A DNA stretch of 64,000 bases from an uncultured Solirubrobacterales bacterium (GTDB taxonomy: Bacteria; Actinomycetota; Thermoleophilia; Solirubrobacterales; 70-9): contig CAWCSE010000003.1 in NCBI GenBank assembly GCA_963798165.1, forward strand, positions 178,014 through 242,013. Direction: 5' to 3'. The notes beneath the pieces are model-generated. The model made no database searches, had not been told where the DNA came from, and worked only from the letters and a program-made list of their open reading frames with translations. Both the position numbers and the translations under genes were made by a program. Below, one piece after another: positions 4,766-43,749 of the stretch. The stretch's first letter is position 1. Every line of letters starts with the position of its first letter.

Positions 4766-6538
4766 ATGTTCGACCCCCGGATATACCGCGCTGCCCTGAT
4801 CCCCGCCGTGGCGGCGTTCATCGTGCTCATGTTCTCCTTCGAGCCGATCCCGAACACGCTCCCCGAGCCGGTTTCCACTCCAACCTTCGACGGCGCCGCG
4901 GCCGCGCGGCTGACTCGATCGATCGTCCAGCTGGCCCCCGAGCGCACGCCCGGCTCCCCCGGCGACAACGCCGTGGCCGACCTCGTCCGCGAGCGCTTCG
5001 GCGCGATCGAGGGTGGGCAGGTGACCGAGCAGTCCTTCGATTCGAGCTACGACGGCGAGGACGTGAAGCTGCGCAACGTCATCCTGACGCTGCCCGGGTC
5101 GTCGCAGCAGACGATTCTCGTGCTCGCCCACCGCGATGCCGCCGAGGGTTCCGGGGCCGCAACATCGGCCGCTGCGACCGCGACCCTGCTCAGCCTCGCC
5201 GACGACCTCGGGCGTTCCCGCCGCACGAAGACGATGGTCTTCGCCTCGACCGACGGCGGCAGCGACGGTGCCGAGGGGGCCCGCAAGCTGATCGAGGATC
5301 TGCCCCATCCCGGTGCGATCGACGAGGCGATCGTGATCTCCCAGCCCGGCGTCAAGAGCCCGGCGGCACCATTCGTGATCAGTTCGGGCACCGATCCCGA
5401 GAGCGCCTCCGCTCAGCTCGTCCAGACCGCCCGCGGCGTCGCGTCGGCAGCCTTCGACCAACGCGATCCGGCGCCGGGCGCCTGGATCGGGCTCTCCCGC
5501 CTCGCGTTCCCGATGGGCATGGGCGAGCAGATGGCGATCCGCGATGCCGGGATCGAAGCGGTCGCGATCAGCGCTCACGGCGAGCGGCAGATCCCCACTT
5601 CTCAGGACGGGATCGACGACGTCTCCGCCGAGACCATCGCCGCCGCCGGAGGAGCGCTGACCGATCTGATCGTGACCCTCGACGAGAGTCCGCAGCCGGA
5701 ACGGGGGCCTGACGACTACGTCCGGGTCGGGGGCAACCTCGTCCCCGGCTGGACGATCTCGTTGCTGGCGGTCTCGTTGCTGATCGCGCCGCTGCTGACC
5801 GCGGGCGACACCTGGTTGCGTGAGCGTCGCAACGACTGGCGGACGCGGCGAACCATCTTCTGGGCGATCGAGCGGGGGCTACTGCCGCTCGCGGCGCTGC
5901 TGCTCGCCTACCTGCTCGGCCTCGTCGGCCTCATTCCCGACCCCGCCTTCCCGTTCGACCCGAACCTCTATCCGGCCGGCTCCGCCGGGCCGATCGCGTT
6001 CGCGGCGCTCGCCGCAGCGGTCGTGCTCGCCGCCCTCCTCGTCCGGCCGATGCGCACCCCTCTCGACATCGAACCGCAGACTCTCGCCGCTGCCGCCGGA
6101 CTCATGACCGGCCTCTCGATCTTCGGGATCTGGCTGATCAACCCCTTCCTGGCGCTGCTGCTGGCACCGGCCGCGCACGTCTGGCTGCTCGCGGCTCGCG
6201 CGGCCGGGCCGCCCCGGCCGCCCGTGCTCGGCGTGATCGCCCTGCTCGCGCTGGCGCCGTCGCTGATCGCCTTCATCACGGTCGCCCGGCAGCTGGAGCT
6301 CGGTGCCGGAGCGCCCTGGCAGTTCCTGTTGCTCATCGAGGACGGACAGGTCAGCCTCCTGATCAGCCTGCTGTGGTGCGGCGTCATCGGCGGGCTGATC
6401 AGCTGCGTCGCCGCCGCCGGAGCGGGCAAGCGCGCCGGCCCGCCCCTCGGCCCGACGGGCAGCATCCGCGGTGCCGGAACTCATGCCGGTCCGGGGGCGC
6501 TCGGCGGTACGCCTCCCGCAACCCGCAATCGCGCCTAG
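4766..6538 (+). CDS. M28 peptidase-like domain protein fused to a polytopic membrane domain
   Basis: 590 aa. The N-terminal TM is followed by ILVLAHRDAAEGSGA and VFASTDGGSDGAEGARKL, which is M28-like, but the usual EE pair is not obvious. The C-terminal half has about 6 hydrophobic helices. Confidence 0.45.
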   Translation: MFDPRIYRAALIPAVAAFIVLMFSFEPIPNTLPEPVSTPTFDGAAAARLTRSIVQLAPERTPGSPGDNAVADLVRERFGAIEGGQVTEQSFDSSYDGEDVKLRNVILTLPGSSQQTILVLAHRDAAEGSGAATSAAATATLLSLADDLGRSRRTKTMVFASTDGGSDGAEGARKLIEDLPHPGAIDEAIVISQPGVKSPAAPFVISSGTDPESASAQLVQTARGVASAAFDQRDPAPGAWIGLSRLAFPMGMGEQMAIRDAGIEAVAISAHGERQIPTSQDGIDDVSAETIAAAGGALTDLIVTLDESPQPERGPDDYVRVGGNLVPGWTISLLAVSLLIAPLLTAGDTWLRERRNDWRTRRTIFWAIERGLLPLAALLLAYLLGLVGLIPDPAFPFDPNLYPAGSAGPIAFAALAAAVVLAALLVRPMRTPLDIEPQTLAAAAGLMTGLSIFGIWLINPFLALLLAPAAHVWLLAARAAGPPRPPVLGVIALLALAPSLIAFITVARQLELGAGAPWQFLLLIEDGQVSLLISLLWCGVIGGLISCVAAAGAGKRAGPPLGPTGSIRGAGTHAGPGALGGTPPATRNRA

Positions 6539-6550
6539 GGGGCTCCCCCC

Positions 6551-6880
6551 ATGTCGGGCGCGCGCCTGGACACGGTTCTGGACGCCTCGCTGGACGCTCG
6601 TCCGAAGGGCCTAAAGCAGTCCCCGCGGGAGCCGATGGGGGCAGGGAAAGGAAGCCGAGATCCGACCATGAATCCAGCAGAGCGAAGTCCGATACGCGCC
6701 GACGACGAGCAGCTCGCGCTCGTGCAGCAGAAGGTCTCCAGAGGCGAATACGAGATCAACGCCCAGCGGGTGGCCATCGCGATTCTCGAGCGGGTCGGCG
6801 TGATGCAGAACACCAGCGTCAGAAACCGCGAAGGTGGTCATGGCCTGATGCCGGAAATGAGCGTCCCCCGGGAAGTCTGA
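6551..6880 (+). CDS. FlgM-like anti-sigma-28 factor family protein (start uncertain)
   Basis: The C-terminal LALVQQKVSRGEYEINAQRVAIAILERV resembles the FlgM signature (G-Y-x-v-d...vA..il). An alternative start is ATG 6668 (MNPAERS). The 3' end overlaps the convergent thiL by 62 nt. Confidence 0.4.
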   Translation: MSGARLDTVLDASLDARPKGLKQSPREPMGAGKGSRDPTMNPAERSPIRADDEQLALVQQKVSRGEYEINAQRVAIAILERVGVMQNTSVRNREGGHGLMPEMSVPREV

Positions 6881-30421: not shown

Positions 30422-30495
<74 letters not shown>

Positions 30496-30646
30496 GCGTG
30501 GGCAGAATACCGCTCTAGCAAGCGGGTTCTGGGAGGTCGGTGATCGGCGGGATGAGCGACCTCATTGGGCAATATTCGGCTCCAGTGACTTTTAGTGACC
30601 AAAAGGGGTTGGAAATGGGCCCGAACAGGGCAGGACCAACGACCTA
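30496..30646. repeat. right arm (tRNA-upstream arm) copy 1 with two AGTGAC repeats
   Basis: GCGTGGGCAGAATACCGCTCTAGCAAGCGGGTTCTGG...TCCAGTGACTTTTAGTGACCAAAAGG...GGGCCCGAAC. Homologous to 34368-34512, 41124-41250 and 41774-41900. Confidence 0.8.
30504..30509 (-). promoter_or_regulatory. -10-like hexamer TATTCT, 8 nt upstream of tRNA-Arg +1
   Basis: Read on the minus strand. The same position holds TAATCT (34376-34381 and the copy near 41132), GAATCT (near 36285) and TATTCT (near 41782) in the four partial copies. Confidence 0.4.
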
Positions 30647-30702
30647 GGTTCTGGCCATAGCTCCTACTCAGCCGGTCCAGGCCAAAGCGAGATACTTAGG
30701 CG

Positions 30703-31096
30703 ATGTCGCAAAAGAACGTGGACGTAGTCCGAGCGGCCTTCGACGGCTGGCTTCGGGGTGATCCGGCAACGCTCGAGCTGATTGACCTGATGTCGTTTAG
30801 TGCCGGGCCCAGGGATGCTGGGTGGCGGCATCTACCGTGGCCACGAGGGCGTGGTCCAGTGGTGGGTCGATTGGCGGCGCGAGTGGACGGACTACGAGAT
30901 CGAGGTCGTACGGCTGGAGGACGTTGGTGATCGAGTATTCACTGCGGAGCGCAGCCAGGCGAAGGGCAAACGCAGTGGAGCCTCCGTGAACTTCGAGACC
31001 TATTCCGTCTGGACCCTGCGGGACGGGAGAATCGTTCGCTGGCAGGGCTATGAGAGTGAGACAGAGGCCCTCGAAGCCGCTGGGCTGTCGGAGTAG
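30703..31096 (+). pseudogene. NTF2/SnoaL-like cassette A, frameshifted
   Basis: N-terminus MSQKNVDVVRAAFDGWLRGDPATLELIDL in one frame. GGIYRGHEGVVQWW...RDGRIVRWQGYESETEALEAAGLSE follows in another frame, with the shift near 30791-30810. Preceded by an L1 leader. Confidence 0.75.
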
Positions 31097-31164
31097 ATCG
31101 GTTCTGGCCGTGAAATAACTCCTACTCAGTCGGTTCAGGGCCAAAGCGAAATACTGCGTGAGCG

Positions 31165-31569
31165 ATGTCGGAGGAGAACGTGGAGCTTGTGGGGCGCATG
31201 ATCGAAGCGTTCAACCAAGGCAGCGTTGACGGCATCCGACCGTTTCTCCACCCCGAGATCGAATGGCACGAGGATCCATCGTTCCCGGAAGCAGGGGTCT
31301 ATCGCGGCGTTGAAGCATTCGAGGAGTACTCGCGGCAGTTTCTCGCAGAGTTCTCTGACATCCGTTACGAGGCTCGGGAGACTGTCGAGATCGGTGACGA
31401 CGTGATTGCCAACATGCAGATTCGGGGACGGGGGAAGACAAGCGGAGCAGCGTTCGAGCTCTCAGCTTGGTGGGCGATCACGTTCCAAGACCATCGGATG
31501 ATCCGTTGCTTTGCTTACCTCGACCGGGATCGGGCTCTGAAAGCCATCGGAGCCGACGGCTCCGAGTAG
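31165..31569 (+). CDS. NTF2/SnoaL-like cassette B (intact, 134 aa)
   Basis: MSEENVELVGRMIEAFNQG...YRGVEAFEEY...RGRGKTSGAAFE...LDRDRALKAIGADGSE. Has its own L1 leader (31097-31164). Confidence 0.75.
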   Translation: MSEENVELVGRMIEAFNQGSVDGIRPFLHPEIEWHEDPSFPEAGVYRGVEAFEEYSRQFLAEFSDIRYEARETVEIGDDVIANMQIRGRGKTSGAAFELSAWWAITFQDHRMIRCFAYLDRDRALKAIGADGSE

Positions 31570-31647
31570 ACCAGTAGGCAGCGTTCTGGCCGTTTCATAG
31601 CTCCTACTTAGCTAGCTCACGGCCAAAAGCGAGATACTGCGTAGACG

Positions 31648-31710
31648 ATGTCGGAGGAGAACGTCAAGACTCTGATTAGCGCCTCGAAGGCCGCGAGTTC
31701 TGCGGCTACG
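31648..31710 (+). pseudogene. NTF2/SnoaL-like cassette C, 5' fragment only
   Basis: An L1 leader followed by ATG TCG GAG GAG AAC GTC AAG (MSEENVK). The family sequence then breaks off and runs into an L2-type leader. Confidence 0.6.
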
Positions 31711-31820
31711 GTCAAGGATGAGTCCCTCCCGTTTATCTGTGAATGGGTGGAGACTGTGGCACTGGCGCCCCCGACGGTCGAGCGAGATACTGGATGGCAA
31801 AGAGCGATACTCAGTGGGCG

Positions 31821-32234
31821 ATGGACTACGAAGAAAAGCTGACGGTCGTTCGCCAGTCCTACGAAGCGTTCAGCCGCAATGATATTGAAGCGCTTCTCTC
31901 TGTCTACGCCCCAGATTGCGAGTGGCTTATGTCGAACTTCGCAGGCTGGCCCGAGAAGCAGCTCTACGTAGGCCGACAGGGTCTCGCCGAGTTCTTCGAA
32001 ACCTGGTTTGAGCCCTGGGAGGACTTCTACGTAGAGATCAGAGAAACGATCGACCTGCCGGGTGATCGCTGCCTTGTGATCGGGGACGCCCATGGGCACG
32101 GCCGACTCAGCGGCGTCGCAGTTGATTTGCCGCCCCTCGCCCAGATCGTCGACTTCCGTGATGGACAGCTTCTGCGTGTCGATAACTATTCGGATGTCGA
32201 AGCGGGCCGAAGAGCCGCCGGGCCGTCGGAGTAG
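31821..32234 (+). CDS. NTF2/SnoaL-like cassette C' (intact, 137 aa)
   Basis: MDYEEKLTVVRQSYEAFSRNDIEALLSVYAPDCEW...YVGRQGLAEFF...GHGRLSGVAV...RDGQLLRVDNYSDVEAGRRAAGPSE. Preceded by an L2 leader. Confidence 0.7.
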   Translation: MDYEEKLTVVRQSYEAFSRNDIEALLSVYAPDCEWLMSNFAGWPEKQLYVGRQGLAEFFETWFEPWEDFYVEIRETIDLPGDRCLVIGDAHGHGRLSGVAVDLPPLAQIVDFRDGQLLRVDNYSDVEAGRRAAGPSE

Positions 32235-32353
32235 CTGCTCGGTCACGCCGCGACCTCGATTACCGGCAAAGCGAGTCCCTCCCGTTTATCGGTGAATGGG
32301 TGGCGGCGCTGGCACTGGCGGTCCCGACGGCCGAGCGAGATACTGGACGGGCG

Positions 32354-32759
32354 ATGTCTCACGAGAACGTGGAACTGGCGGAACGCGCATATGCAGCGTT
32401 TAAGGAAAGAGGATGTGCCGACGGTCATCGAGCTGTTCGATCAAGACATCGGATGGAATGCCTCCGACGTCTTCTTCGACGAGCCGCGGGCCTATCGCGG
32501 CCGAACGGAGTGGGCGCAGACCTTCCTTCGAGACCTGATCGCACTGTTCGAGGACTACCGGGCCGATCCCGAGGAGATCATTGACGCTGGCGACCATCTA
32601 GTGGCCATCGTTCGGGTTGGCGGGCGCGGGAGACACAGCGGCGCGATGGTGACGGCACGTGTTGCACACGTCATGACATTCAGAGATGGCGGAATCGCTA
32701 CCTTCACAGAGTTCAAGGATGTCCCTGAGGGCCGCGAAACCGCCGGGCTGACGGAGTAG
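32354..32759 (+). pseudogene. NTF2/SnoaL-like cassette D, frameshifted near 32400
   Basis: MSHENVELAERAYAAFKE in one frame, then (K)EDVPTVIELFDQDIGWNAS...GGRGRHSGAMV...FRDGGIATFTEFKDVPEGRETAGLTE in the next. The shift is at the GGAAAGAGG run. An internal ATG could still give a truncated product. Confidence 0.65.
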
Positions 32760-32762
32760 GCG

Positions 32763-33179
32763 ATGTCGGGTGAGAACGTCGAGATCGTGCGCCGAGCCAT
32801 CGAGGCGTTCAACCGCGCCGGTACCGCCGGGGCGGTTAGCTCTGGCCTCTACGCGGATGACGTTGAATGGGATGGCACACGAAGCGGGGTCCCCGGAGCC
32901 GGCGTCGAGCGAGGCATCGATGACGTAGTTGCCTTCTTCGAAGAGAACTGGTTCGCCGCGTTTCCGTTCGAAGATTGGGAGATCCACATTGAGGAGGCGA
33001 TTGATAACGGAGATAAGGTGGTCTTCACTTCCCATCAACGAGCGCGAGGAGCATCCGAGCGGGGCGGAGAGTCCCTCGCCCTTGGAAGCATCTTCACGCT
33101 CCGCAACGGACAGATCGTGCGGATGCAGGTCTTCCAGCGCCCGGAAGATGCCCGCAAAGCCGCCGGGCCGACGGAGTAG
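32763..33179 (+). CDS. NTF2/SnoaL-like cassette E (intact, 138 aa)
   Basis: MSGENVEIVRRAIEAFNRAG...FPFEDWEIHIEEAIDNGDKVVFTSHQRARGASERGG...LRNGQIVRMQVFQRPEDARKAAGPTE. Chained 3 nt after the stop of D. Confidence 0.75.
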   Translation: MSGENVEIVRRAIEAFNRAGTAGAVSSGLYADDVEWDGTRSGVPGAGVERGIDDVVAFFEENWFAAFPFEDWEIHIEEAIDNGDKVVFTSHQRARGASERGGESLALGSIFTLRNGQIVRMQVFQRPEDARKAAGPTE

Positions 33180-33182
33180 TCG

Positions 33183-33591
33183 ATGTCGGAGGAGAACGTG
33201 GAGATCGTGCGCTGGCTTCACGAGAAGGGACACGCAAGGCGAACAGTCGAAGTGCCTGGTGTCGAGGATCGGATTGCCTCCGACTATCGCTTCCACCCGC
33301 GATCCGACTTTCCGGGTCGTTCCACCTACCGCCTTGACGAATTGGTCAATTTCTGGGCCGATCTCGACGCGACCTTTATTGACTACAGCCTGATTCCCCA
33401 AAGCTACGAATCGATTGGTCCTACCCACGTCTTGGTCACGCTGCGACAGACGACGCTCGGCCCGGGGAAGCGACCAGTTGCTCACCGAACTCATCTACAT
33501 GCTCTGGGAACTGGTCGAAGGAAGGGCCAAGGAGACATGGACGTCCAGCGAGAGGGAGCAAGCCCTCGAAGCTGCCGGGCTGTCGGAGTAG
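33183..33591 (+). pseudogene. NTF2/SnoaL-like cassette F, frameshifted
   Basis: MSEENVEIVRWLHEKG...THVLVTLRQT in frame 1. The family C-terminus LTELIYMLWELVEGRAKETWTSSEREQALEAAGLSE lies in another frame. The length is 409 nt, not a multiple of 3. Confidence 0.7.
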
Positions 33592-33594
33592 GTG

Positions 33595-34002
33595 ATGTCG
33601 CAAAAGAACATGGAGGCATTCAAGCGATCGGTTGAGGCGGGCAGCCGCCACGACTTTGACGCGATGCTGGAGGAGCTTGACCCGGCGGTGGAATGGCATC
33701 CGGCGGTAGGCGTGGCGTTGGCAGGTGAAGCGACGGTGCTTCGGGGACGGGAGGAGGTGCGGAAGTGGTTTCAGGACCTGTTCGGAGCGTTCGAGGATCT
33801 TCGCTTCGAAGCCTCGGAGTTCCGGGACCTCGGAGATGAACTGCTCGCGTTCGGTCGGGTGCAGGCCCATGGCACCGCAAGCGGTGTCGAGATCGACTCG
33901 GCATTGGCGTGGCTGGTCCGAGCAAAGAACGGGAAGGCGATTTGGGTCCGGAGCTACATGGATCCGAAGGAAGCTCTCGAAGCGGCCGGACTTTCGGAGT
34001 AA
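33595..34002 (+). CDS. NTF2/SnoaL-like cassette G (intact, terminal cassette of module 1)
   Basis: MSQKNMEAFKRSVEAGSRHDFDAMLEELDPAVEWHP...LRGREEVRKWF...AHGTASGVEI...KNGKAIWVRSYMDPKEALEAAGLSE. It ends in TAA, the only non-TAG stop in the array. Confidence 0.75.
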   Translation: MSQKNMEAFKRSVEAGSRHDFDAMLEELDPAVEWHPAVGVALAGEATVLRGREEVRKWFQDLFGAFEDLRFEASEFRDLGDELLAFGRVQAHGTASGVEIDSALAWLVRAKNGKAIWVRSYMDPKEALEAAGLSE

Positions 34003-34189
34003 CTCCGCCATCAGACCAGGGCGTGAAGCCGGGCAGCAGGAGATGCCTGCCTAGGAACTGGTCCGTAACAGTGATCAAGAGATCCGGTGCCGCACCATGC
34101 CGTCGTCCACGGTGACCGCCCGTTGCAGGGTCAGGTAAGGATGATCAGGGCGATCCCGCAGGTACTGCACGGGAACGCCAGAACTGAGC

Positions 34190-34512
<323 letters not shown>

Positions 34513-34572
34513 GGTTCTGGCCATTTCACCTACTTAGTCGGTTCAGGGCCTAAGCGAGATACTGCACAGACG

Positions 34573-34951
34573 ATGTCGCAGGAGAACGTGGACCTCATCA
34601 AACAGGGCTACGAGGTACTGGAAGGCCACTGGTGAGGTCAACGCGCATCCTGACCTGGTCTGGGATGTGACCAGACCGGCTGGCCAGGCCAGCAGATCTA
34701 TCCGGACCTGACGGAGCTAACGGTTCAACGCAGAGTGGGCGGATGCTTGGGATGACTGGGAGGTCGAGCTCGAGGACTGCCTTGACTTCGGGGAGCGAGT
34801 AGTAGCATCGTCAATCAGCGGGGACGTTCGAAGGTAACGGGATTCCGTGGACATGCACTTCGCTCAGGTGTGGTGCTCGCGACGGACTGGCGTTCAGGAT
34901 GAAGATGTACGCGAGCGGAGGAGGCCTCGAAGCCGCGGGCTGTCGGAGTAG
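34573..34951 (+). pseudogene. NTF2/SnoaL-like cassette N, heavily decayed
   Basis: An L1 leader, then MSQENVDLIKQGYEVLEGHW-stop. Family remnants (WDDWEVELEDCLDFGERVV..., ...EAAGCRSR) sit in shifting frames. Ends at the ..GGCTGTCGGAGTAG junction. Confidence 0.6.
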
Positions 34952-34990
34952 GCGCGCAGAGGGCGTTCCGGCCTTTGTGCGCGAGATAGG

Positions 34991-35400
34991 GTGCGCGACA
35001 TAGAGGGAAGAGACGAAGAAATCATCGCCAGCCTGCGCCGCACCTACGAGGCGACAACCGAGGCGACTTCGACTCCGCTGTCGAGATTGCTGCACCCTGA
35101 CGTTGAACTGGTTACAACCGGTGGCTTCACGAGCCTCGCGGGACCGACAAGCTCCGTGAGTGGTTGGAGCCAGAGACGATGGAGGACATAACGATGGAGC
35201 CGTAGTATTTCGAGGTTGCGGGCAACAACGTGCTGGTACGCCAGAGAAGTCGAGGCCGTGGAGTGACGAGCGGAGCTAAAGTCGAGATGGACTTCTGGGT
35301 GGGTTACACGATTGACGACGAGGGTCGCGTGACTAGGATGGTCGCTTATAACCACGATCAGGAAGTCAGAGCTCGAACGGATACCGGGCTATCGGAGTAG
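34991..35400 (+). pseudogene. NTF2/SnoaL-like cassette O, decayed (frameshifts and stops)
   Basis: EEIIASLRRTYEA...LLHPDVELVTTGG and ...NNVLVRQRSRGRGVTSGAKVEMDFWVGYTIDDEGRVTRMVAYNHDQEVRARTDTGLSE lie in different frames. 410 nt. Confidence 0.55.
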
Positions 35401-35403
35401 GCG

Positions 35404-35748
35404 ATGTCGGAAGAGAACGTGGAGATCGTTCGTCGCTGCTATGAGTTCTTGGAGAACCGCGACGAGTCGTTGATCGTTGAACTGATTGATCCCGACGTCG
35501 TCTACGACCTCTCGAGGAATGTATTCAACCCCGACGTCTATGTAGGTCACGAAGGGCTCAGGAGCTTGGTCGAACAGGTCGATGCGATGTGGGAGGGCTT
35601 TCGCATTGAGCCAGAAGAGTTCTCCGATGGTGGCGAATATGTCGTCTGCGCAGCTCGGATGACTGGACGGGGTAGAAAGAGAGGAGTCCCCACGGAGATG
35701 CGCCTCTTCCAGGTCTGGCAGCTTCGCGACGGCAAGGTACTGCGATAG
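35404..35748 (+). CDS. NTF2/SnoaL-like cassette P, truncated by an in-frame TAG 18 codons before the family stop
   Basis: MSEENVEIVRRCYEFLENRD...YVGHEGLRSLVE...TGRGRKRGVPTEMRLFQVWQLRDGKVLR-TAG. The same frame continues TGGYREHAEALEEAGLSE-TAG, ending at 35805. Confidence 0.65.
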   Translation: MSEENVEIVRRCYEFLENRDESLIVELIDPDVVYDLSRNVFNPDVYVGHEGLRSLVEQVDAMWEGFRIEPEEFSDGGEYVVCAARMTGRGRKRGVPTEMRLFQVWQLRDGKVLR

Positions 35749-35887
35749 ACGGGCGGCTACCGAGAGCATGCCGAAGCCCTCGAAGAGGCCGGGCTGTCGG
35801 AGTAGGGCGCTCACTCCCGGCATCAGACCGGGACGCCGAAGCCGGGGCAGCAGGGGATGCCCTACAGAAATGGGTCCATAGCCGTGG

Positions 35888-36010
35888 TCAAGAGATCCGT
35901 TGCTGCACCATGCCCTCGTCCACCGTGACCGCCCGTTGCAGGATCAGGTAAATGATGAACAGGGCGACGACCGCCGATGCCGCGATCAGCACCTTTTTTC
36001 CGATGCTCAT
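35888..36010 (-). CDS. 40-aa hydrophobic peptide in the module-end region (hypothetical)
   Basis: MSIGKKVLIAASAVVALFIIYLILQRAVTVDEGMVQQRIS, with GGAGAGG 1 nt before the ATG. The homologous stretch in module 1 (34075-34190) carries an internal deletion that removes the start. Confidence 0.35.
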   Translation of the reverse strand: MSIGKKVLIAASAVVALFIIYLILQRAVTVDEGMVQQRIS

Positions 36011-36099
36011 GCCTCTCCTTCGATCGAGTTCTACGACCGCGATCGTATTCTCGGCTCCACCTTCGCGCAGGTATTGCACGGGATCACCAGAACGTTGCG

Positions 36100-36310
<211 letters not shown>

Positions 36311-36522
36311 CTAGCGTAGCCGCCGGAGCCAAAATCGCGGGGCTTGGCCGGGAGGCGGGCTCGATTGTGCCCATTGCTGCCCATTCAACGCCCAACTGAA
36401 CTCTCATGCAACAGCACCATCTCGTCATGCGCTGACGTCGGAAACCCGGTTGTGCGTTGACTGCGCGATGACTTTGTCAATAGGATCGCGCAGTCCAAAT
36501 CGGGAATCCAAACGGGAGACTT

Positions 36523-37413
36523 GTGAGCAACTTCAATCGACGCCGTTCGCGCAATTCAGAAACGAAGCGGCGGAGGTTGAGCAAGCCGAGCCCGGCGATG
36601 GCCGTGGCCCTTGCTGCCCTGTTCTTCGCGATGACCGGAATGGGCATCGCCGCCAAGTCCATGATCACGGGAAAGCAGATCAAGAATGGGACGGTGACCT
36701 CGAAGGATCTCGCCAAGGGCGCGGTCAAGGCGAAGAACCTCGCCGACAGCGCGGTCACGCCCGCCGCCCTCGCAGACAGTGCCGTCACGGCCGACAAGCT
36801 CGCGGGCAGCTCAATCACCGCTCGTGCCATCGACGGCTCCTTGCCGGCGAGATCCGCAGGGCGAGTTATCAATCAGGGCTCGGTCCCCAAAATCTGTCCT
36901 GGCGGCATCATCACCTTCGGCGCAGCGTGCCCTGCCATACCCGAGCGGGCGAACATGCGCTACGCGGAAGTACTGAACTTCGACAGCTGGTACGCCCTTC
37001 AAGGATTACCCTGCAGCGGCAGCGGCGGCGACCTGCCGCTGACTTCTATCTCGCAGTCTCCCGATTTGGCGCCCTACCCGGGCTTGCCAACGACTGGTGA
37101 CCGATTCACAATCGAGAAGACGGGGAACTACACGGTCACTGTCAACGCCACCTGGGACGCGGGTCCCGGCGATTACCGCGCAATCCAAGCAGACAAGCAC
37201 CTTGGCAGCGGCCCCAACCAAGGCGAGAGTGTCAAAATCGGATACGTGATCGATGCACCCGCGCCTGGTCTGGAGACCATGCAGTCGGGGACGTTCGACT
37301 TCACGGCCAACGCGGGGGACACCATCCACTTCAGTGCCTCGCAGTGCGGCCCCAATATGGTCAAGCTCCAGGAGCTGAGGGCTAACGTCTTGCCGGAGCA
37401 GGCCGTTCAGTAG
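36523..37413 (+). CDS. membrane-anchored hypothetical protein with short tandem xLAxSAVT-type repeats
   Basis: 296 aa. GTG start with GGGAGA 4 nt upstream. Basic N-terminus, one TM (MAVALAALFFAMTGMGIAA), then ITGKQIKNGTVTSKDLAKGAVKAKNLADSAVTPAALADSAVTADKLAGSSIT. I recognise no catalytic motif. Confidence 0.5.
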   Translation: MSNFNRRRSRNSETKRRRLSKPSPAMAVALAALFFAMTGMGIAAKSMITGKQIKNGTVTSKDLAKGAVKAKNLADSAVTPAALADSAVTADKLAGSSITARAIDGSLPARSAGRVINQGSVPKICPGGIITFGAACPAIPERANMRYAEVLNFDSWYALQGLPCSGSGGDLPLTSISQSPDLAPYPGLPTTGDRFTIEKTGNYTVTVNATWDAGPGDYRAIQADKHLGSGPNQGESVKIGYVIDAPAPGLETMQSGTFDFTANAGDTIHFSASQCGPNMVKLQELRANVLPEQAVQ

Positions 37414-37528
37414 CCGGGGTTGCCGGGGACGCTGGTTCTCGGCGAAGCCTCATCGCAGCGGTAACCTGCCGCGGGTCGGTTCGCCGTACCCGGGCATCGG
37501 CGCTAGTGGCCAATGGAGGGCCGAAATG

Positions 37529-37676
37529 GCGGGTGCAGGCCCATGGCACCGCAAGCGGTGTCGAGATCGACTCGGCATTGGCGTGGCTGGTCCGAGCAAA
37601 GAACGGAAAGGCGATTTGGGTCCGGAGCTACATGGATCCGAGGGAAGCCTTCGAAGCCGCCGGGCTGTCGGAGTAG
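37529..37676 (+). pseudogene. 3' fragment of an NTF2/SnoaL-like cassette (G'), near-identical to the 3' end of cassette G
   Basis: CGGGTGCAGGCCCATGGCACCGCAAGCGGTGTCGAGATCGACTCGGCATTGGCGTGGCTGGTCCGAGCAAAGAACGG matches about 33856-33935 with 1 mismatch by eye. It is fused upstream to a right-arm fragment (37503-37528). Confidence 0.75.
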
Positions 37677-37679
37677 GCG

Positions 37680-38096
37680 ATGTCGGAGGAGAACATCGAG
37701 ATTGTCCGGCGAGTCATTACGGCGCTCAACCGAGGCGGACCCGCCGCAGTAGTGAACACCGGCCTCCTCGCGGACGAAGTCGTGTTCGACGGCACGCAAA
37801 GCGGCATCCCTGGAGTCAGCGTCTTCCGAGGCATCGATGCCGTCCGGGATTTCTTCGAGGAGGACTGGTTCGATGTGTTTCCGTTTGAGGACTGGGAGAT
37901 TCGCATGGAGGAGCCGATCGACAACGGAGAGCAGGTGGTCTTCACTTCTCACCAACGAGGGCGGGGAGCGTCCAGCAGGGCGGGAACGGTGCTCACGGTC
38001 GGCAACATCTTCACTGTCCGCAACGGAAAGCTCGTGCGCATGCAGATCTTCCAGCGACCCGACGAAGCCCTCGAAGCCGCCGGGCTGTGGGAGTAG
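37680..38096 (+). CDS. NTF2/SnoaL-like cassette H (intact, 138 aa; closest paralog of E)
   Basis: MSEENIEIVRRVITALNRGG...FPFEDWEIRMEEPIDNGEQVVFTSHQRGRGASSRAG...VRNGKLVRMQIFQRPDEALEAAGLWE. Confidence 0.75.
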   Translation: MSEENIEIVRRVITALNRGGPAAVVNTGLLADEVVFDGTQSGIPGVSVFRGIDAVRDFFEEDWFDVFPFEDWEIRMEEPIDNGEQVVFTSHQRGRGASSRAGTVLTVGNIFTVRNGKLVRMQIFQRPDEALEAAGLWE

Positions 38097-38099
38097 AAG

Positions 38100-38501
38100 A
38101 TGTCGGAGGAGAACGTAAAGATCGTTCGCCGATCCTTCGACACCTTCAATCAACGCGACAAGGTTGCGTGGATGGCCGACGCCGATCTGGAATGCGAGGT
38201 GTTTCCCCCTGCCGAGTGGCCCGAGAACACGCCGATTCGAGGAGCCGCGGCCTGCTGGGAGTTCTACCTCGACAACGCAAAGGCCTTCGAGGAGGGCTCG
38301 TTTGAGCTTCGGGAGGTTCGTGACGTCGGTCACGGCCGGGTGATCGCGAACCAGCATCGGGAGATGCGGGGCAGGAAGAGTGGAGCAGCCGTGGTCTATG
38401 ACTTCTGGGCCGTGATCACGCTCCGGCATGGGAAGCACGTCCGCTGGGATTGGTTCAGCACCCGATCCGCGGCCCTGGAGGCCGCCGGGCTGTCGGAGTA
38501 G
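38100..38501 (+). CDS. NTF2/SnoaL-like cassette I (intact, 133 aa)
   Basis: MSEENVKIVRRSFDTFNQRD...EMRGRKSGAAVVYDFWAVITLRHGKHVRWDWFSTRSAALEAAGLSE. Followed by a 73-nt fragment of the module-end region. Confidence 0.75.
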   Translation: MSEENVKIVRRSFDTFNQRDKVAWMADADLECEVFPPAEWPENTPIRGAAACWEFYLDNAKAFEEGSFELREVRDVGHGRVIANQHREMRGRKSGAAVVYDFWAVITLRHGKHVRWDWFSTRSAALEAAGLSE

Positions 38502-38631
38502 GCGCTCACTCCAGCCATCAGACCGGGACGTGAAGTCGGGGCAGCAGGGGATGCCCTGCCGAAATGGGTCCATAACCGTGGTGGCCCTGGCACTGGCGCC
38601 CCCGACGGCCGAGCGCGATACTGGACGGGCG

Positions 38632-39033
38632 ATGTCGCAGGAGAACGTGGAGATCGTGCGCGCCTACATCGACGCGTACAACGGGGGCGATCTCGAACCC
38701 GCGCTCGGCCTTCTCGCTGACGACTTCGAGTACGACGGCTCGCGCGCGCTTGGTCCGGACAGCAGTCGGGCCTATGACCGCGACGGGTTCCGTGACTTCC
38801 TTGTCGACTTCGCATCGAACTGGGAGTCCCCGGTGCGGATCGAACCGCACGAGTTCATCGACGCCGGAGCGCGCGTGGTCGTCCCCTGGACCTTCCATGC
38901 GACCGGACGCGACGGGCTCGACCTAGACGCGCGGGTGACGATGGTGTTCACGGTCCGCGACGAGGCCATCGCGGGGATCTGCATGCACCAGGATCGCAGC
39001 GGAGCCCTCGAAGCCGCCGGGCTATCGGAGTAG
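38632..39033 (+). CDS. NTF2/SnoaL-like cassette J (intact, 133 aa)
   Basis: ATG 38632. MSQENVEIVRAYIDAYNGGDLEPALGLLADDFEY...ATGRDGLDLDARVTMVFTVRDEAIAGICMHQDRSGALEAAGLSE. Preceded by a partial L2 leader. Confidence 0.75.
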   Translation: MSQENVEIVRAYIDAYNGGDLEPALGLLADDFEYDGSRALGPDSSRAYDRDGFRDFLVDFASNWESPVRIEPHEFIDAGARVVVPWTFHATGRDGLDLDARVTMVFTVRDEAIAGICMHQDRSGALEAAGLSE

Positions 39034-39036
39034 GCG

Positions 39037-39459
39037 ATGTCGCAGGAGAACGTCGACTTTGTGACCGGTCTCTTCTCGGGGGCACTCGAGATGGAGAAGG
39101 ACGATCTCCTCGCCGCGCTTCCGGAGATGACTCGGCAAGCATGTGACCCGGAGATCGAATGGATCGAGGACCCGCAGCGTGCAGACTCGCGTACCTACCG
39201 CGGGCACGAGGGCGTCCTCGAGTCGTGGACCCAGTGGCTCGAGGGATTCGAGGAATATGGGGTCGAGCTCGAGGCGATCCGCGATTGCGGCGACAAGGTC
39301 TTGGTCACGATGCGGGAGGAGGGGCGAGGAGGGGCGAGTGGCGCATCCGTGTCAGCGCGTGTCTACGCGGTCCTGACCTTCCGAGACGCCAAGGTCCTGC
39401 GTTACCAGGAGTTCTACGACGAGCGAATGGCTGGCGAGGCCGCCGGCCGCTTGGAGTAG
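39037..39459 (+). CDS. NTF2/SnoaL-like cassette K (intact, 140 aa)
   Basis: MSQENVDFVTGLFSG...YRGHEGVLESWTQWLEGFEEYGVELEAIRDCGDKVLV...GRGGASGASV...FRDAKVLRYQEFYDERMAGEAAGRLE. Confidence 0.7.
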   Translation: MSQENVDFVTGLFSGALEMEKDDLLAALPEMTRQACDPEIEWIEDPQRADSRTYRGHEGVLESWTQWLEGFEEYGVELEAIRDCGDKVLVTMREEGRGGASGASVSARVYAVLTFRDAKVLRYQEFYDERMAGEAAGRLE

Positions 39460-39462
39460 CCG

Positions 39463-39855
39463 ATGTCGAAGGAGAACATTGAGACTGTGCGACGCCTGCT
39501 CGAGGTCACCAGTGCTGAGGACGCCTCAGGTGCCGTGCCCTTGCTCGATCCGGACCTCAAGTGGATTCCGTTACGTGCCGCAACGGAAGGGGCATATCAC
39601 GGCATCGATGGCTATCTGAAGTTCGTGGCTGACACGGACGAGAGCTTCGAGATCTTCGAGCCTCACCTCGAGCTTCGCGACGCTGGCGACCGAGTGCTGG
39701 CCTGGGGCACGATTCACCTGCGGGGCGGCGGCAGCGGGGTGGAGATTGACGTTCCAGTTGGGGGCATCTTCGATCTTCGCGACGGAAGAATCATCCGCTG
39801 GCAGGACTTCGGTTCTAGGGAAGCAGCCCTCAAAGCCGCCGGGCTGTCGGAGTAG
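39463..39855 (+). CDS. NTF2/SnoaL-like cassette L (intact, 130 aa)
   Basis: MSKENIETVRRLLEV...YHGIDGYLKFV...LRGGGSGVEIDVPVGGIFDLRDGRIIRWQDFGSREAALKAAGLSE. Confidence 0.75.
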   Translation: MSKENIETVRRLLEVTSAEDASGAVPLLDPDLKWIPLRAATEGAYHGIDGYLKFVADTDESFEIFEPHLELRDAGDRVLAWGTIHLRGGGSGVEIDVPVGGIFDLRDGRIIRWQDFGSREAALKAAGLSE

Positions 39856-39975
39856 ATGAGCAGTCACAGGGCGACCTCGATCACCGGCAGAGCGAGACCT
39901 CCGGCTTATCCGCAGATAGGAGGGCGGGCCGTGGTAGTGAAGGCCCAGAGGGCTAAGCGAGATACTGCGTGAGCG

Positions 39976-40389
39976 ATGTCCGACCAGGAAGATCTCGCCA
40001 TCCTCCGGGAGGCATACCTCGCCTGGAATGACCTTGGGGTCGGTGGGGACGGCGTCGCGCGGTTCTTTCACCCGGACGTCGAGTGGATCAACCCGCCGGA
40101 AATGCCCGGCGGGGGAACCCGGATCGGCAAAGACGCCGTCTTGGCTTTCCTGAGGGAGTGGGAAGGGACGATGGGGATCATGAACGTGACCTTCAACGTC
40201 GAGCAGATCATTCCGGCCAACGGCGAGTACCTCGTGGTCTCGGTCGTCACCGCAACGAGCGGGCATGGGGTGGCCATTCCTCCTCAGAACGTGTTTCACT
40301 TGTTGCGAATCGAAGACCGCCGGGTGGGCAGAGTGCGGTTCTTTTTCGATCGAGCGGCGGCCCTCGAAGCCGCCGGGTTGTCGGATTAG
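39976..40389 (+). CDS. NTF2/SnoaL-like cassette M (intact, 137 aa)
   Basis: MSDQEDLAILREAYLAWNDLG...RIGKDAVLAFLREWEG...TSGHGVAIPPQNVFHLLRIEDRRVGRVRFFFDRAAALEAAGLSD. Has its own hybrid L2/L1 leader. Confidence 0.7.
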   Translation: MSDQEDLAILREAYLAWNDLGVGGDGVARFFHPDVEWINPPEMPGGGTRIGKDAVLAFLREWEGTMGIMNVTFNVEQIIPANGEYLVVSVVTATSGHGVAIPPQNVFHLLRIEDRRVGRVRFFFDRAAALEAAGLSD

Positions 40390-40464
40390 GCCAATAGACA
40401 GCGTTCTGGCCGCCGCGTAGCCCCACCCAGCCGGTTCAGGCCAAAGCGAGATACTGCACAGACG

Positions 40465-40851
40465 ATGTCGAAGGAGAACGTGGAAATCGCTCGCCGCGCC
40501 TACGCGGCCTTCAACCGGCGCGACTTCGACGCTGCCCTGGAGTCTTTTGATCCCGGTGTCGAGTGGCACCAGATAACGCAGTTCCCCGATCGAAGCGTCT
40601 ATCGCGGACTTGACGACATGAGAGACCGCTTCTGGAACCGACAGCTGGTCGAGCAGTTCGGGGATTTCAGGATCGACGTTGAGGAGTTCGTTGACGCTGG
40701 TGATCACGTCGTGATGATCGGGCACATCGTCGCCCACGGAAGCGGCAGTGGGGTGCCGATCCGTCAGCGGGTCGTCAACATCCTGGAGTTGCGCGACGGG
40801 AAGACCATTCGCGCATACGACGTTGCTGGGCCGAGCGAGAGCGAGAGTTAG
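40465..40851 (+). CDS. NTF2/SnoaL-like cassette Q (intact, 128 aa; divergent C-terminus)
   Basis: MSKENVEIARRAYAAFNRRDFDAALESFDPGVEWHQ...YRGLDDMRDRF...AHGSGSGVPIRQRVVNILELRDGKTIRAYDVAGPSESES. L1 leader at 40390-40464. Confidence 0.75.
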   Translation: MSKENVEIARRAYAAFNRRDFDAALESFDPGVEWHQITQFPDRSVYRGLDDMRDRFWNRQLVEQFGDFRIDVEEFVDAGDHVVMIGHIVAHGSGSGVPIRQRVVNILELRDGKTIRAYDVAGPSESES

Positions 40852-40954
40852 GCCGAAGTAACCGACGTCCATCCTGGGATCTCGATCCGCTCGTCGGCGT
40901 CAGCCACCACGCCGTTGTCAGCGAGGCGTCGGCGATCATCCTGACTACTTCCCT

Positions 40955-41250
<296 letters not shown>

Positions 41251-41639: not shown

Positions 41640-41900
41640 AGATCCGGTGCAGAATCCCGGAACGGGTATCTGAAATCGGGCTAACCTCGCCGCCTGGCGG
41701 GGTGGCCAGATGGAGTCTCGGTCTACACCGCTGCCGTCAGGGGAGTCGCTCTATCCAGCTGAGCTATCGGGGCCTGGGAGCAGAATACCGCTCTGGTAAG
41801 CCGATTCCGAGAGGTCGCCGATCGGTGGGATGAGCCATCTCATCGAGCAAATCTCGGCTCCAGTGACTCTTAGTGACCAAGGGAGGGCGGAAAGAGGCCC
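41640..41900. repeat. junction 5: diverged left arm + shortened tRNA-Arg 5' part (41741-41773) + right arm
   Basis: GGGAGTCGCTCTATCCAGCTGAGCTATCGGGGC equals tRNA nt 1-33. The anticodon-loop part is replaced by GCCGTCA. The left arm keeps GAGATCCGGTGC, GCCAGATGG and ACACCGCT islands. The right arm has TCCAGTGACTCTTAGTGACCAAGGGAGG. Confidence 0.7.
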
Positions 41901-41954
41901 CTCCGCCCCAGACCGCCCACGGCCAGGGATACTGACGTCGATGGAGGAATCGGG

Positions 41955-42170
41955 TTGATCGTCGCGGACATCGGTGCGGAGAGCGTCATCGTCATCGCCT
42001 TGATCGTCGCCGTCGTGATGGCCGTTCTCGTCGCCTACTTCGCCATCTCAATCTCCCGGAACGGTCCCAGCAGGAATGGCTACTCGCAGCTTTGGGGCAG
42101 CCTGTTTTTGGCTGCCGTCAGTCTCGGCGTCGCTGCCGTCGTCGGGGGCTTGTTGGCGAACGTGAACTGA
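41955..42170 (+). CDS. small membrane protein (2 TM), hypothetical
   Basis: 71 aa. TTG start with GGAGGA 7 nt upstream. VIVIALIVAVVMAVLVAYFAI and LFLAAVSLGVAAVVGGLL. Confidence 0.4.
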   Translation: MIVADIGAESVIVIALIVAVVMAVLVAYFAISISRNGPSRNGYSQLWGSLFLAAVSLGVAAVVGGLLANVN

Positions 42171-42304: not shown

Positions 42305-43690
42305 TCAGGGCGCGAACTGAAAGCGATAGACGTTCGTGGCTGGGGGGAAGTTGCCGTGGTAGGCGGGTTGCCCGGGCGGGTCGATGTTGTCGGCAGGGGT
42401 GTAGAAGGCGGCGAACTTCCCGTCGCCGGCGATCGCCGGCTCACCGGCATACTCGTTCGCTCCCGGCCCCCCGCCACCGGCCCGGGAGATGAGGGTTGCC
42501 CGCTTCTTCTTGCGGTCGTAGACGTAGGAGTTGAGCGGGGACATGACCGGCCCGCCCAGGTTGGTGGCGCTGGTCTGGAAGGTGACGTAGCGGCCGGTGT
42601 TCGAAAGGGATGCGCTCGAGGCGGACCCGTTCACCCCCATTCCCCCGGCCACCTTCGACTGCCGCGAGATGAGCACCGTCCTGCCTTTACGCCGATCGTG
42701 CAGGTAGAGGTTGATCTGATCGGGAGCCGGCAGCACGGGCCCACCGAGGTTCGTGGCCGTGGTCTGGAAGACGACGTAGCGGCCGTTTGCAGAGATGTCC
42801 GGCACGTCGGCGTTGTCGTTGACGCCCGAGCCTCCTCCGGAGCGGCGTGAGGCGAGGCTGATCCGGCGCTTGCTCCAGTCGTAGGCGTAGACGTTGGCGC
42901 TGGCACCCGGCTTGATCGGTCCACCCAGGTTTCGGGCCTGACTCTCGAAGGCAACCACCGGCGCCCGCGGCGCGATCGAAGGCTCGAAGGAGTCGTCCTT
43001 GCCGCCCCGGCCCCCGTGCGAGCGTCGCGAGACCAGGAAGGTTCGATTCTTCTTCAGGTCTCGAACGTAGACGTTGGTGAAGCCGCCCTTGGTGATCGGT
43101 CCGCCGAGATTGGTCGATCGCGTCTGAAAGGAGACGTAGCGGCCGTTCGCCGAGATCGAAGGTCCGTCCGAGTTCTGATCCGCGCCTCCCCCACCGGCGT
43201 TTGCAGAGCGCCGCGAGACGAGCTCGACGGTGTCCTTGCGGCGGTCATAGACGTAGACGTTCTGCTCCGCGACGATCGGCCCGCCCAGGTTTTGCGCGTC
43301 GGTGCGAAAGACCACGAACCTTCCATTGCCCGAGATCTGCTCCTCCCGCGAATCACCATCAGCACCGACGCCGAGGTTCGACTCGCGCGACACCGTCTCG
43401 ACCGTGCGGTTCTTGAAGTCATATACGTAAACGGTGGTCTCGAAGGAACCGCTGGCGTGGACACCGAGGTTGGTCGCCTCGCTGCGGAAGGCGACGAAGC
43501 GGCCGTCGTCTGAAACCGATGAGCCATAGGACCAGGAATTGGCACCGGCGCCCCCGTCGGCGTCGGATTGACGGCTGACCAGCTCCAGGTCCCCCTTCGC
43601 GCCGAAAGCCGAAGCTGCCAGCAAGCAGAAGGCAAGGCCAGCGAGGCCGATGCCGGCGGCGCTGAGACGCGTGTGATCGCGTTCCCTCAT
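42305..43690 (-). CDS. secreted TolB-like/PD40 beta-propeller repeat protein
   Basis: Start at ATG 43690 (MRERDH..., AGGAGAGAG upstream). Signal peptide, then about 8 repeats of S.DGRFVAF.S.ATNLGG type (ISGNGRFVVFRTDAQNLGG, ISANGRYVSFQTRSTNLGG...). Confidence 0.7.
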   Translation of the reverse strand: MRERDHTRLSAAGIGLAGLAFCLLAASAFGAKGDLELVSRQSDADGGAGANSWSYGSSVSDDGRFVAFRSEATNLGVHASGSFETTVYVYDFKNRTVETVSRESNLGVGADGDSREEQISGNGRFVVFRTDAQNLGGPIVAEQNVYVYDRRKDTVELVSRRSANAGGGGADQNSDGPSISANGRYVSFQTRSTNLGGPITKGGFTNVYVRDLKKNRTFLVSRRSHGGRGGKDDSFEPSIAPRAPVVAFESQARNLGGPIKPGASANVYAYDWSKRRISLASRRSGGGSGVNDNADVPDISANGRYVVFQTTATNLGGPVLPAPDQINLYLHDRRKGRTVLISRQSKVAGGMGVNGSASSASLSNTGRYVTFQTSATNLGGPVMSPLNSYVYDRKKKRATLISRAGGGGPGANEYAGEPAIAGDGKFAAFYTPADNIDPPGQPAYHGNFPPATNVYRFQFAP

Positions 43691-43749
43691 CTCTCTCCTG
43701 CCAAACCGTACCACCGGTCCCCAGGGCAAGCCCGCATCTTTCCGGTGAG

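Follow-up and report, generated by a model that had tools for sequence, protein, structure and literature searches.

A tandem array of SnoaL_2 cassettes with conserved ends at a tRNA-Arg island of an uncultured Solirubrobacterales bacterium

The question raised by this locus is how many copies of one small gene family, whose interiors differ widely from each other, come to share almost identical ends, and what such a collection may serve for. The stretch analyzed, referred to below as the window, comprises 64,000 nucleotides (64 kb) from an uncultured Solirubrobacterales bacterium, and the copies in question, members of the SnoaL_2 family (PF12680) of the NTF2 clan, are lined up beside an intact tRNA-Arg(CCT) gene. 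The account that we consider probable is that they are self-contained SnoaL_2/NTF2 cassettes in tandem on integrase-less tRNA-Arg modules, shuffled via their conserved ends and giving a diversified recognition repertoire.

The array and its conserved cassette ends

A profile built from nine intact copies was used for a six-frame scan of the whole window, which yields 19 family copies, all of them on the + strand and confined to positions 30703-40851. Eleven of these are intact (B, C', E, G, H, I, J, K, L, M and Q), copy P is full length except for an in-frame TAG at 35746-35748, the coding sequence of five (A, D, F, N and O) is distributed over at least two frames, and the remaining two are fragments, namely a 5' stub (C) and a 3' fragment (G'). 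E and H are 64% identical, while the other copies show 23-37% identity to H, and the MSxENVE and ALEAAGLSE termini are almost invariant among the copies. The G+C content of the array is 0.58-0.65 versus ~0.70 in the flanks, and at third codon positions (GC3) the cassettes show 0.71-0.81 versus 0.87-0.96 in the flanking genes. An initial annotation, made from the letters alone, had listed the same number of same-strand copies in the same states, E and H as the closest pair (about 60% by eye), near-invariant termini and a G+C content below that of the flanks, and its description turns out to be accurate in all points that can be checked. Long open reading frames (ORFs) of 298-433 aa also run across the arrays on the - strand (32598-33494, 37503-38573 and 39571-40872); as genes they were rejected, since they do not pass the GC3 test and the junction is read in them as ...LLRHRLLRQPGGFEGF..., and they are almost certainly artefacts of G+C-rich sequence.

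The cassette ends are conserved at the nucleotide level, the 5' end as ATG TCG CAG GAG AAC and the 3' end as the last 30 nt of the gene, GCC CTC GAA GCC GCC GGG CTG TCG GAG TAG. Where two cassettes are coupled, the junction reads CTG TCG GAG TAG NNN ATG TCG NNN GAG AAC, which is in frame, places GGAG at the Shine-Dalgarno position and amounts to ~58 nt of near-identical sequence carrying direct repeats (TGTCGGAG), not inverted ones. The start-to-start spacing of the pairs E/F, H/I, J/K and K/L is 405-426 nt and always a multiple of three. Uncoupled cassettes are instead preceded by a leader of ~20 nt, GCGnGATACT-N9-ATG, found in 190 copies, with a spacing to the ATG of exactly 9 nt in 170 of them and with conservation that starts abruptly at GCG-GATACT.

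This conservation was analyzed codon by codon, aligning 298 intact copies and comparing codon identity, among the copies with the consensus amino acid, to the expectation from the codon usage of the family. Interior glycine columns 48 and 110 give 0.33 and 0.36 versus 0.30 expected, hence synonymous sites there are saturated. Columns 124-132, at the 3' end, reach 0.45-0.96 versus 0.30-0.64 expected, with the non-preferred codons GAA in 95% and GGG in 78% of the copies, columns 2-5 (TCG CAG GAG AAC) show 0.89-0.96, and 281 of 298 copies end in TAG. A coupled neighbor makes no difference to the excess, be it downstream (149 versus 145 copies) or upstream (131 versus 165). As an ascertainment control, all copies touching the pattern used for the locus search (see below) were dropped, which leaves 91 copies in 48 loci, and one copy per locus was resampled: the interior excess is then 0.005 (spread 0.09), that of columns 124-132 is 0.21-0.52 (z 2.3-5.7), and columns 2-4 still show z values of 2.7-4.8. 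The cassette ends are constrained as DNA, beyond the conservation of the protein.

These data bear directly on an alternative in which the copies are ordinary paralogues from tandem duplication, whose termini are kept by protein function and translational coupling and which are not mobile. Tandem duplication is indeed the simplest origin of same-strand, in-frame copies, the terminal peptides are conserved over thousands of clusters of the family, and the GGAG of the last codons lies at Shine-Dalgarno distance from the next ATG. However, a synonymous constraint over ~30 nt that is equally strong where no cassette follows is not what this explanation leads to expect.

Concerning secondary structure, junctions and spacers fold no better than shuffled sequences (z -2.0 to +1.0), and a small GCCC...GGGC hairpin in the 3' end is maintained without covariation, its outer stem pairing in ~50% of the copies; RNA structure is not adopted here as the cause of the conserved ends. 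A third type of spacer, seen after cassettes in six of the loci described below (L002, L024, L067, L099, L104 and L109), carries the paired hairpins CTGCTTTGGACGAGAAGCAG and CTGCTTTGCATGGAAAGCAG, which may be terminator-like or repetitive extragenic palindromic (REP)-like elements.

Cassettes shared between genomes

The junction DNA pattern GGAGTAGNNGATGTCGNNNGAGAAC was scanned over one genome per species (185,579 species), and the comparison loci are tiles of up to 8 kb, all found through this motif. At least 120 genome stretches contain it; among the matches listed, nearly all are labelled as Solirubrobacterales, Thermoleophilaceae or unclassified actinomycete metagenome-assembled genomes (MAGs), and many originate from soil surveys. 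The tiles hold 519 profile matches, up to 10-20 per tile and many of them fragmented. Several assemblies contribute two tiles, so that more than one array per genome is possible. SnoaL arrays are lineage-wide in Thermoleophilia-type MAGs, and their content varies between related genomes without any fixed ordered set, which answers a comparison that the initial annotation had called for. Together with the conservation of the termini at synonymous sites, this lineage-wide cassette system goes beyond what that annotation had noticed.

The size of the units that are shared emerges when the window and 122 loci are compared all against all by megablast. The longest blocks between loci at 88% identity or more measure 400-515 nt, that is, one cassette length (identities 88-97%), and their ends fall ~5-35 nt from a cassette start or stop codon. 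Of 28 close pairs, 9 have an intact neighbor following each of the two copies, and identity between these neighbors is only 57-61%. Three cassettes of the window recur elsewhere, C' (97%) and H (88%) in L001 and N (95%) in L025, where it is intact, in each case in a different order and between unrelated flanks. The distance from handle to handle, i.e. between conserved ends, peaks sharply at 360-389 nt (275 cases). There is cassette-sized mosaicism between species. Single-cassette blocks of such identity among unrelated neighbors in different species, as well as the same cassettes in differing orders and contexts, speak further against immobile tandem paralogues, an explanation that we hold to be decidedly unlikely.

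Two candidate observations were discarded. Empty cassettes were considered as a footprint of excision, but only ~7 of ~350 handle pairs are closer than 300 nt, a number compatible with ordinary deletions, and they are not used as evidence; a synteny of the window with L001 was dropped because the hemerythrin gene of that locus is not orthologous to that of the window. The cassette interiors have a median dN/dS of 0.34 (55 close pairs), which points to selection that is purifying though fairly relaxed, housekeeping genes being expected at lower values.

In the mechanism that we propose, the conserved cassette ends would act as recombination handles, and recombination between handles would duplicate, delete, reorder or exchange whole cassettes while leaving reading frames unbroken. 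Homologous recombination or unequal crossing-over is the most likely process, the alternative being some site-specific system, because no integrase accompanies the arrays and because the junction repeats are direct and not inverted. Coupled cassettes would be translated by coupling, while cassettes with a leader would probably start new, nearly leaderless transcripts. The outcome would be a repertoire under birth-and-death turnover, composed of NTF2 scaffolds whose interiors vary and differing from species to species.

The site-specific alternative takes the form of an integron-like system, where a dedicated recombinase encoded elsewhere acts at the conserved junction or leader. Its appeal lies in the compact cassettes of uniform orientation, mostly without a promoter of their own and with conserved boundaries, in the sharp onset of conservation at the leader, in the location of arrays in islets bounded by attachment (att) sites, and in a truncated tyrosine recombinase gene found divergently upstream of the L001 array. 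Yet tblastn with three tyrosine recombinases detects no integrase in the window, and an integrase cluster lies near the array in only 4 of 120 loci. The boundaries contain neither an attC-like imperfect palindrome nor a significantly stable fold, although no dedicated attC model was run, and the junction repeats have the direct orientation mentioned above. Moreover, integron arrays carry heterogeneous cassettes, whereas those found here are of essentially one family. Taken together, we regard an integron-like system as very improbable.

The NTF2 scaffold and the question of function

All nine copies tested pass the gathering score of SnoaL_2, with 32.6-63.7 bits versus a cut-off of 27 (E 1e-7 to 3e-17), so the NTF2-clan match predicted from the letters is present. 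The AlphaFold2 model of H, obtained with an alignment of 89 sequences, is an NTF2 cone with a predicted local distance difference test (pLDDT) score of 88.6 and a predicted TM-score (pTM) of 0.84, in which EALEAAG is predicted to make an additional C-terminal helix. The top Foldseek matches in the PDB are TerC, the uncharacterized NTF2-like proteins 3ebt, 3fgy and 3ec9, ketosteroid isomerase, limonene epoxide hydrolase and engineered digoxigenin binders, with probability 1.0 to TerC, 3ebt and the two enzymes and TM-scores of ~0.6-0.8; no immunity protein appears near the top of these PDB matches. At the sequence-profile level, 3ebt, 3fgy and 3ec9 are matched with E-values of 1e-17 to 1e-19.

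The interior positions conserved in at least 70% of the 298 intact copies are Gly48, Gly77, Val80, Gly90, Ser93, Gly94, Arg108 and Gly110 only, and, as judged by column conservation in the same copies, the interior has no conserved Asp, His, Tyr or Trp column. A profile search of cluster representatives (1.84 billion) matches 1,371 clusters at E <= 1e-30 and 18,121 at E <= 1e-10, including many two-domain fusions as well as single-domain members with MSQENVE...VRR and ALEA[AV]GL[SR]E termini. Among the proteins P0121-P0268, the fusions measure ~265 aa, and in some of them the ALEAAGLSE tail runs directly into the next domain. There are also giant proteins with 8-14 matched SnoaL stretches, e.g. 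P0121 with 1945 aa and 14 stretches; read-through of an array was considered for such a protein and rejected, as the linkers differ in P0121, the one examined. No homologue was found in 50,697 phage records, and the cassettes match no specific NCBIfam model.

We think that the locus supplies a diversified set of recognition proteins, directed at small molecules or at proteins, and does not encode the enzymes of one defined pathway. Such a repertoire fits with a scaffold that stays fixed around a variable interior, with alignment columns in which no conserved catalytic residue was seen, with fast turnover and with an island location. The proteins would then be non-catalytic or promiscuous binding scaffolds, in which glycines and turns are conserved and the interior varies; this is the weakest step of the account.

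What would be recognized can be approached from the structural relatives and from the genes around the arrays. Clustering of the 690 ORFs that flank arrays in the 120 loci reveals no partner that recurs, and the largest cluster is present in 8 loci. A Pfam scan of the 149 ORFs immediately beside arrays of at least two genes gives STAS (4), RTX repeats (3), SDR (3) and cupin (3), and the 25 most frequent Pfam families of these neighbors, within the 8-kb tiles, include no recurrent WXG, LXG, RHS or nuclease-toxin domain. Small ORFs with RTX calcium-binding repeats (HemolysinCabind, E 5e-22) occur in 7 of 120 loci, e.g. at 6006-6323 of L057, too few for a partner.

One possibility, to which we give some weight while doubting it, is that the cassettes encode small-molecule binders or promiscuous enzymes (isomerase-, hydrolase- or cyclase-like) that sequester or detoxify soil natural products or xenobiotics, amounting to a chemical immunity. 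The cone pocket of the nearest structural relatives takes up steroids, epoxides, polyketides or digoxigenin as ligands, the variable interior and the conserved scaffold glycines agree with such a role, each cassette type is under purifying selection, and P450, SDR, cupin and Vgb-lyase-like genes are found among the neighbors, though 2-3 each out of 149. On the other hand, no Asp, His or Tyr column is conserved for catalysis, and pathway neighbors are not consistent.

A second possibility, raised in the initial annotation, is an orphan or acquired immunity repertoire, a homogeneous poly-immunity locus on mobile islands in which each cassette neutralizes one variant of a polymorphic toxin that competitors deliver. 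Rapid turnover, decay, diversification on a fixed scaffold, exchange between species and att-bounded islands beside tRNA genes would all suit it, as would a dN/dS relaxed relative to the housekeeping expectation. NTF2-fold immunity families do exist, although Imm-NTF2 is not listed for Actinobacteria; they have a conserved W, W, W (or Y, W) signature and are linked to a cognate toxin, Tox-NucA or Tox-JAB-2, or to a polymorphic-toxin locus (PMC3482391). None of this is seen here: the Imm-NTF2 and Imm-NTF2-2 Pfam profiles give no match at E <= 0.01 in nine copies, Trp is the commonest residue in four profile columns only, at 24-42% among the 298 copies, PADLOC has no match for four cassettes or for a 296-aa ORF of the island, toxin domains do not recur among the 25 most frequent families of the neighbors, and the closest solved structures are small-molecule enzymes and binders. 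What stands of that proposal is the architecture, one family densely packed, diversified and decaying at a recombination hot spot, with its NTF2-clan match and variable content; its immunity function receives no positive evidence from profiles, Trp columns, PADLOC or neighbors, and we consider it unlikely. The annotation had also named what would undermine its wider idea of a repertoire, among it a missing NTF2-clan match or the same cassettes in the same order in relatives; since the match is present and cassette content differs, that idea is not undermined. Small-molecule binding is placed slightly above toxin immunity because the nearest structural relatives bind ligands and because no linkage to toxins was found within the tiles.

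Returning to the preferred account, cassettes shuffled through their conserved ends into a recognition repertoire, several points weigh against it. The N- and C-terminal peptides are conserved as protein across the wider family, therefore part of the conservation of the ends is ordinary purifying selection. The constraint on the ends could also come from translation or RNA, such as the initiation region of the next gene, a site for mRNA processing or for a regulator, or the GCCC...GGGC hairpin, and the leader lacks a -35 element and escapes a sigma-70 scan. Searching loci by the junction pattern biases some columns, which is corrected in the resampled 91-copy test alone. Cassette-sized blocks could in part reflect unequal evolutionary rates of orthologous cassettes, the recombination events being deduced from the comparison of sequences, and some frameshifts could be sequencing or assembly errors if the contig comes from a long-read metagenome bin. 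Finally, the functional reading rests on the absence of conserved catalytic residues and of partner genes.

Carried further, and more tentatively, the data may point to a gene-cassette system of Thermoleophilia that is independent of integrons, where intragenic, nucleotide-conserved handles allow in-frame swaps within and between species and maintain, in integrase-less tRNA islets, a hypervariable and horizontally shared repertoire for the recognition of toxins or natural products. Thermoleophilia (Solirubrobacterales) are abundant in soil, barely studied and rarely cultivated, and a lineage-wide cassette family of fast turnover would be a major, undescribed part of their accessory genome. If the handles are true, they would provide a third route to cassette arrays, beside integrons and toxin/immunity loci, which needs no dedicated integrase and in which each exchanged unit stays a complete gene, joined in frame to its neighbor. 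As the NTF2 scaffold is favored for designed small-molecule binders, a natural hypervariable library of it could show the recognition needs of soil actinobacteria.

The tRNA-Arg island and related systems

The island is anchored by the intact tRNA-Arg (anticodon CCT) at 30422-30495 on the - strand (ARAGORN; Rfam tRNA 71.6 bits), and the array, on the 5' side of this gene, begins ~200 nt from its 5' end. Four extra copies of the tRNA 5' half (as far as the anticodon loop), each with part of the upstream region, are present at ~34327, ~36237, ~41083 and ~41741 and have an invariant core of ~33 nt. Including ~130 nt of upstream sequence, the repeated segment covers 30455-30622, 34327-34462, 36237-36311, 41083-41218 and 41741-41900. 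The usual tRNA duplication concerns the 3' end and here it is the opposite side: as the repeat consists of the tRNA 5' half plus upstream region, the island lies 5' of the intact tRNA-Arg. The first three extra copies are each preceded by the end of a shared element (~250 nt), and repeats of AGTGACCAA, ~110 nt to either side of the tRNA-half core, look like integrase arm-type sites. From this arrangement, the region looks like three or four related integrase-less elements accreted in tandem at tRNA-Arg(CCT), with SnoaL cassettes as nearly their sole cargo. Candidate integrase remnants at the module ends were rejected, having no Pfam match even at E <= 1, and an Rfam scan for known RNA motifs at 29.5-43 kb gave tRNA alone.

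The architecture recurs in other species. L082, from a different Solirubrobacterales MAG, carries the same tRNA-Arg 5' half in three perfect copies of 44 nt (346-389, 3881-3928 and 6515-6558), the first two enclosing an array of seven SnoaL cassettes. Two further islets consist of SnoaL genes only and are flanked by tRNA-Val(TAC) and a direct repeat of the tRNA 3' end, of 22 nt in L052 (5382-7697, five cassettes) and of 17 nt in L120 (1046-4022, seven cassettes), with no integrase inside either. A tRNA gene is found in 36 of 120 tiles, often 50-400 nt from the array end and with many different identities; the share expected from typical tRNA numbers is ~9%.

Within the window, the repeated tRNA upstream region (30496-30702; repeat families D5, D7 and D14, alignment) runs into the leader of cassette A, recognized by its GATACT at 30691. 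In the first module, all cassettes being on the + strand, A (30703-31096) is frameshifted from frame 0 to frame 1, its hidden Markov model (HMM) matches at 30703-30768 and 30797-31093 being in different frames. B (31165-31569) is intact, with 134 aa and its own leader (HMM E 1e-53; SnoaL_2 E 3.8e-16). C (31648-31719; ORF MSEENVKTLIS..., leader 31633-31650) consists of a 5' end alone, fused to a truncated spacer, and right after this stub, at 31720, begins the high-identity block common to the window and L001. C' (31824-32234, alternative start 31794; HMM), the cassette found at 97% nucleotide identity in an unrelated context of L001, is followed on the + strand by a long spacer (32235-32353; alignment, repeat families D12 and D16) that ends in the leader GCGAGATACTGGACGGGCG and belongs to the same family as the spacers 38502-38631 and 39856-39975. 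D (32354-32759) is frameshifted, with two HMM matches in frames 1 and 2; E (32763-33179, 138 aa; HMM) is intact and joined to D and F by TAG-NNN-ATG junctions (repeat D1); F (33183-33591) is frameshifted, its HMM matches 33183-33464 and 33520-33588 lying in different frames; and G (33592-34002; HMM, repeat D2 copy at 33946-34004) is the intact last gene of module 1, with more synonymous changes in its 3' end than the other cassettes and TAA as stop.

The first module boundary (34040-34462; repeats D5, D13, D14 and D17-D19, alignment) contains the shared element end of ~250 nt, the tRNA-Arg 5' half (core ~34327-34367) and the tRNA upstream repeat. It is followed by N (34573-34958), decayed here and 95% identical in nucleotides to the intact cassette of L025, a Solirubrobacterales MAG, by the frameshifted O (35012-35400) and by P (35404-35805) with its in-frame TAG, all three with HMM matches. 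After the second boundary (35866-36311; element end and tRNA-Arg 5' half with core ~36237-36277, from repeats and alignment), and before G', comes a passenger ORF that is not SnoaL (36523-37413, + strand, 296 aa). It matches no Pfam, NCBIfam or PADLOC family, shows by eye a hydrophobic N-terminal stretch and also a repetitive stretch rich in K, A, V and T, and has weak N-terminal similarity to an ORF family of four other array loci (e.g. L080 4226-4852). The 3' fragment G' (37530-37676; HMM) is 95% identical to the 3' end of G (repeat D15) and is coupled to H (37680-38096), which is intact, coupled in frame with I and 88% identical in nucleotides to the L001 cassette. The remaining copies are intact and identified by HMM: I (38100-38501), J with a leader (38632-39033), K and L, both coupled in frame (39037-39459 and 39463-39855), M with its own leader (39976-40389), and Q (40465-40851), which has its own leader and lacks the canonical C-terminal end.

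The third boundary (40941-41218; repeats, alignment) is again composed of element end, tRNA-Arg 5' half (core ~41083-41123) and upstream repeat, and the fourth (41715-41900; D5 and D7, alignment) holds the last tRNA-Arg 5' half and upstream repeat; given its differing left flank, it may be the original site. After this last repeat, a leader-like GATACT-N7-ATG (41928-41943, + strand) stands ahead of a 71-aa ORF (41955-42170, + strand) that looks hydrophobic and has only sub-threshold Pfam matches to membrane families, so the leader also occurs outside SnoaL cassettes. In several other loci, non-SnoaL ORFs start with TAGGCGATGTCGCAG. Just past the island, a gene at 42305-43729 (- strand) encodes a visibly repetitive 474-aa protein with a match to PD40 (TolB-like beta-propeller) repeats, and the G+C content is still depressed up to ~44 kb, this gene included.

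A full-text search of the literature turned up no account of SnoaL gene cassettes or of arrays of SnoaL genes in Thermoleophilia. Like integron arrays (sedentary chromosomal integrons and clusters of attC sites lacking integron integrases, CALINs), the arrays are dense, made of small, mostly promoterless cassettes of the same orientation, have conserved boundaries and vary in content among relatives; unlike them, they have no IntI and no attI or attC hairpin sites, their conserved boundaries lie inside the coding ends, their cassettes belong to one protein family, and their host lineage is Thermoleophilia. Recombinase-associated acquired interbacterial defence (AID) systems are a comparable island type, and to our knowledge nucleotide-conserved intragenic ends are not a described feature of AID or poly-immunity loci. 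With poly-immunity loci, i.e. SUKH/SuFu-type arrays, the array has in common tandem small paralogues, fast diversification, decay, horizontal movement and location on islands (PMC3482391). It differs from poly-immunity and AID loci in having no toxin linkage, no immunity-family match and no adjacent recombinase.

Homology-flanked exchange of variable segments is known from Neisseria minimal mobile elements and from the pilS and vls silent-cassette arrays, with which the array shares a variable segment between conserved sequence and the tandem arrangement in the same orientation. In contrast to these systems, each cassette is here a complete gene with start and stop, potentially expressed, there is no single expression site, and the products have the predicted fold of small soluble NTF2 proteins. 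As for tRNA-linked, integrase-less, cis-mobilizable elements, direct repeats of a tRNA part, tandem modules and the lack of an integrase inside are common to both, whereas here the repeat is the tRNA 5' half plus upstream region and nearly all of the cargo comes from one gene family. At the protein level, 3ebt, 3fgy and 3ec9 belong to the same Pfam family, SnoaL_2, and have the same fold; they were deposited as individual proteins, with no described cassette behavior or ALEAAGLSE tail context. The array fails the defining tests of integrons and of Imm-NTF2, while it shares features with integrons, poly-immunity or acquired-defence islands, homology-flanked exchange systems and tandem integrase-less islands.

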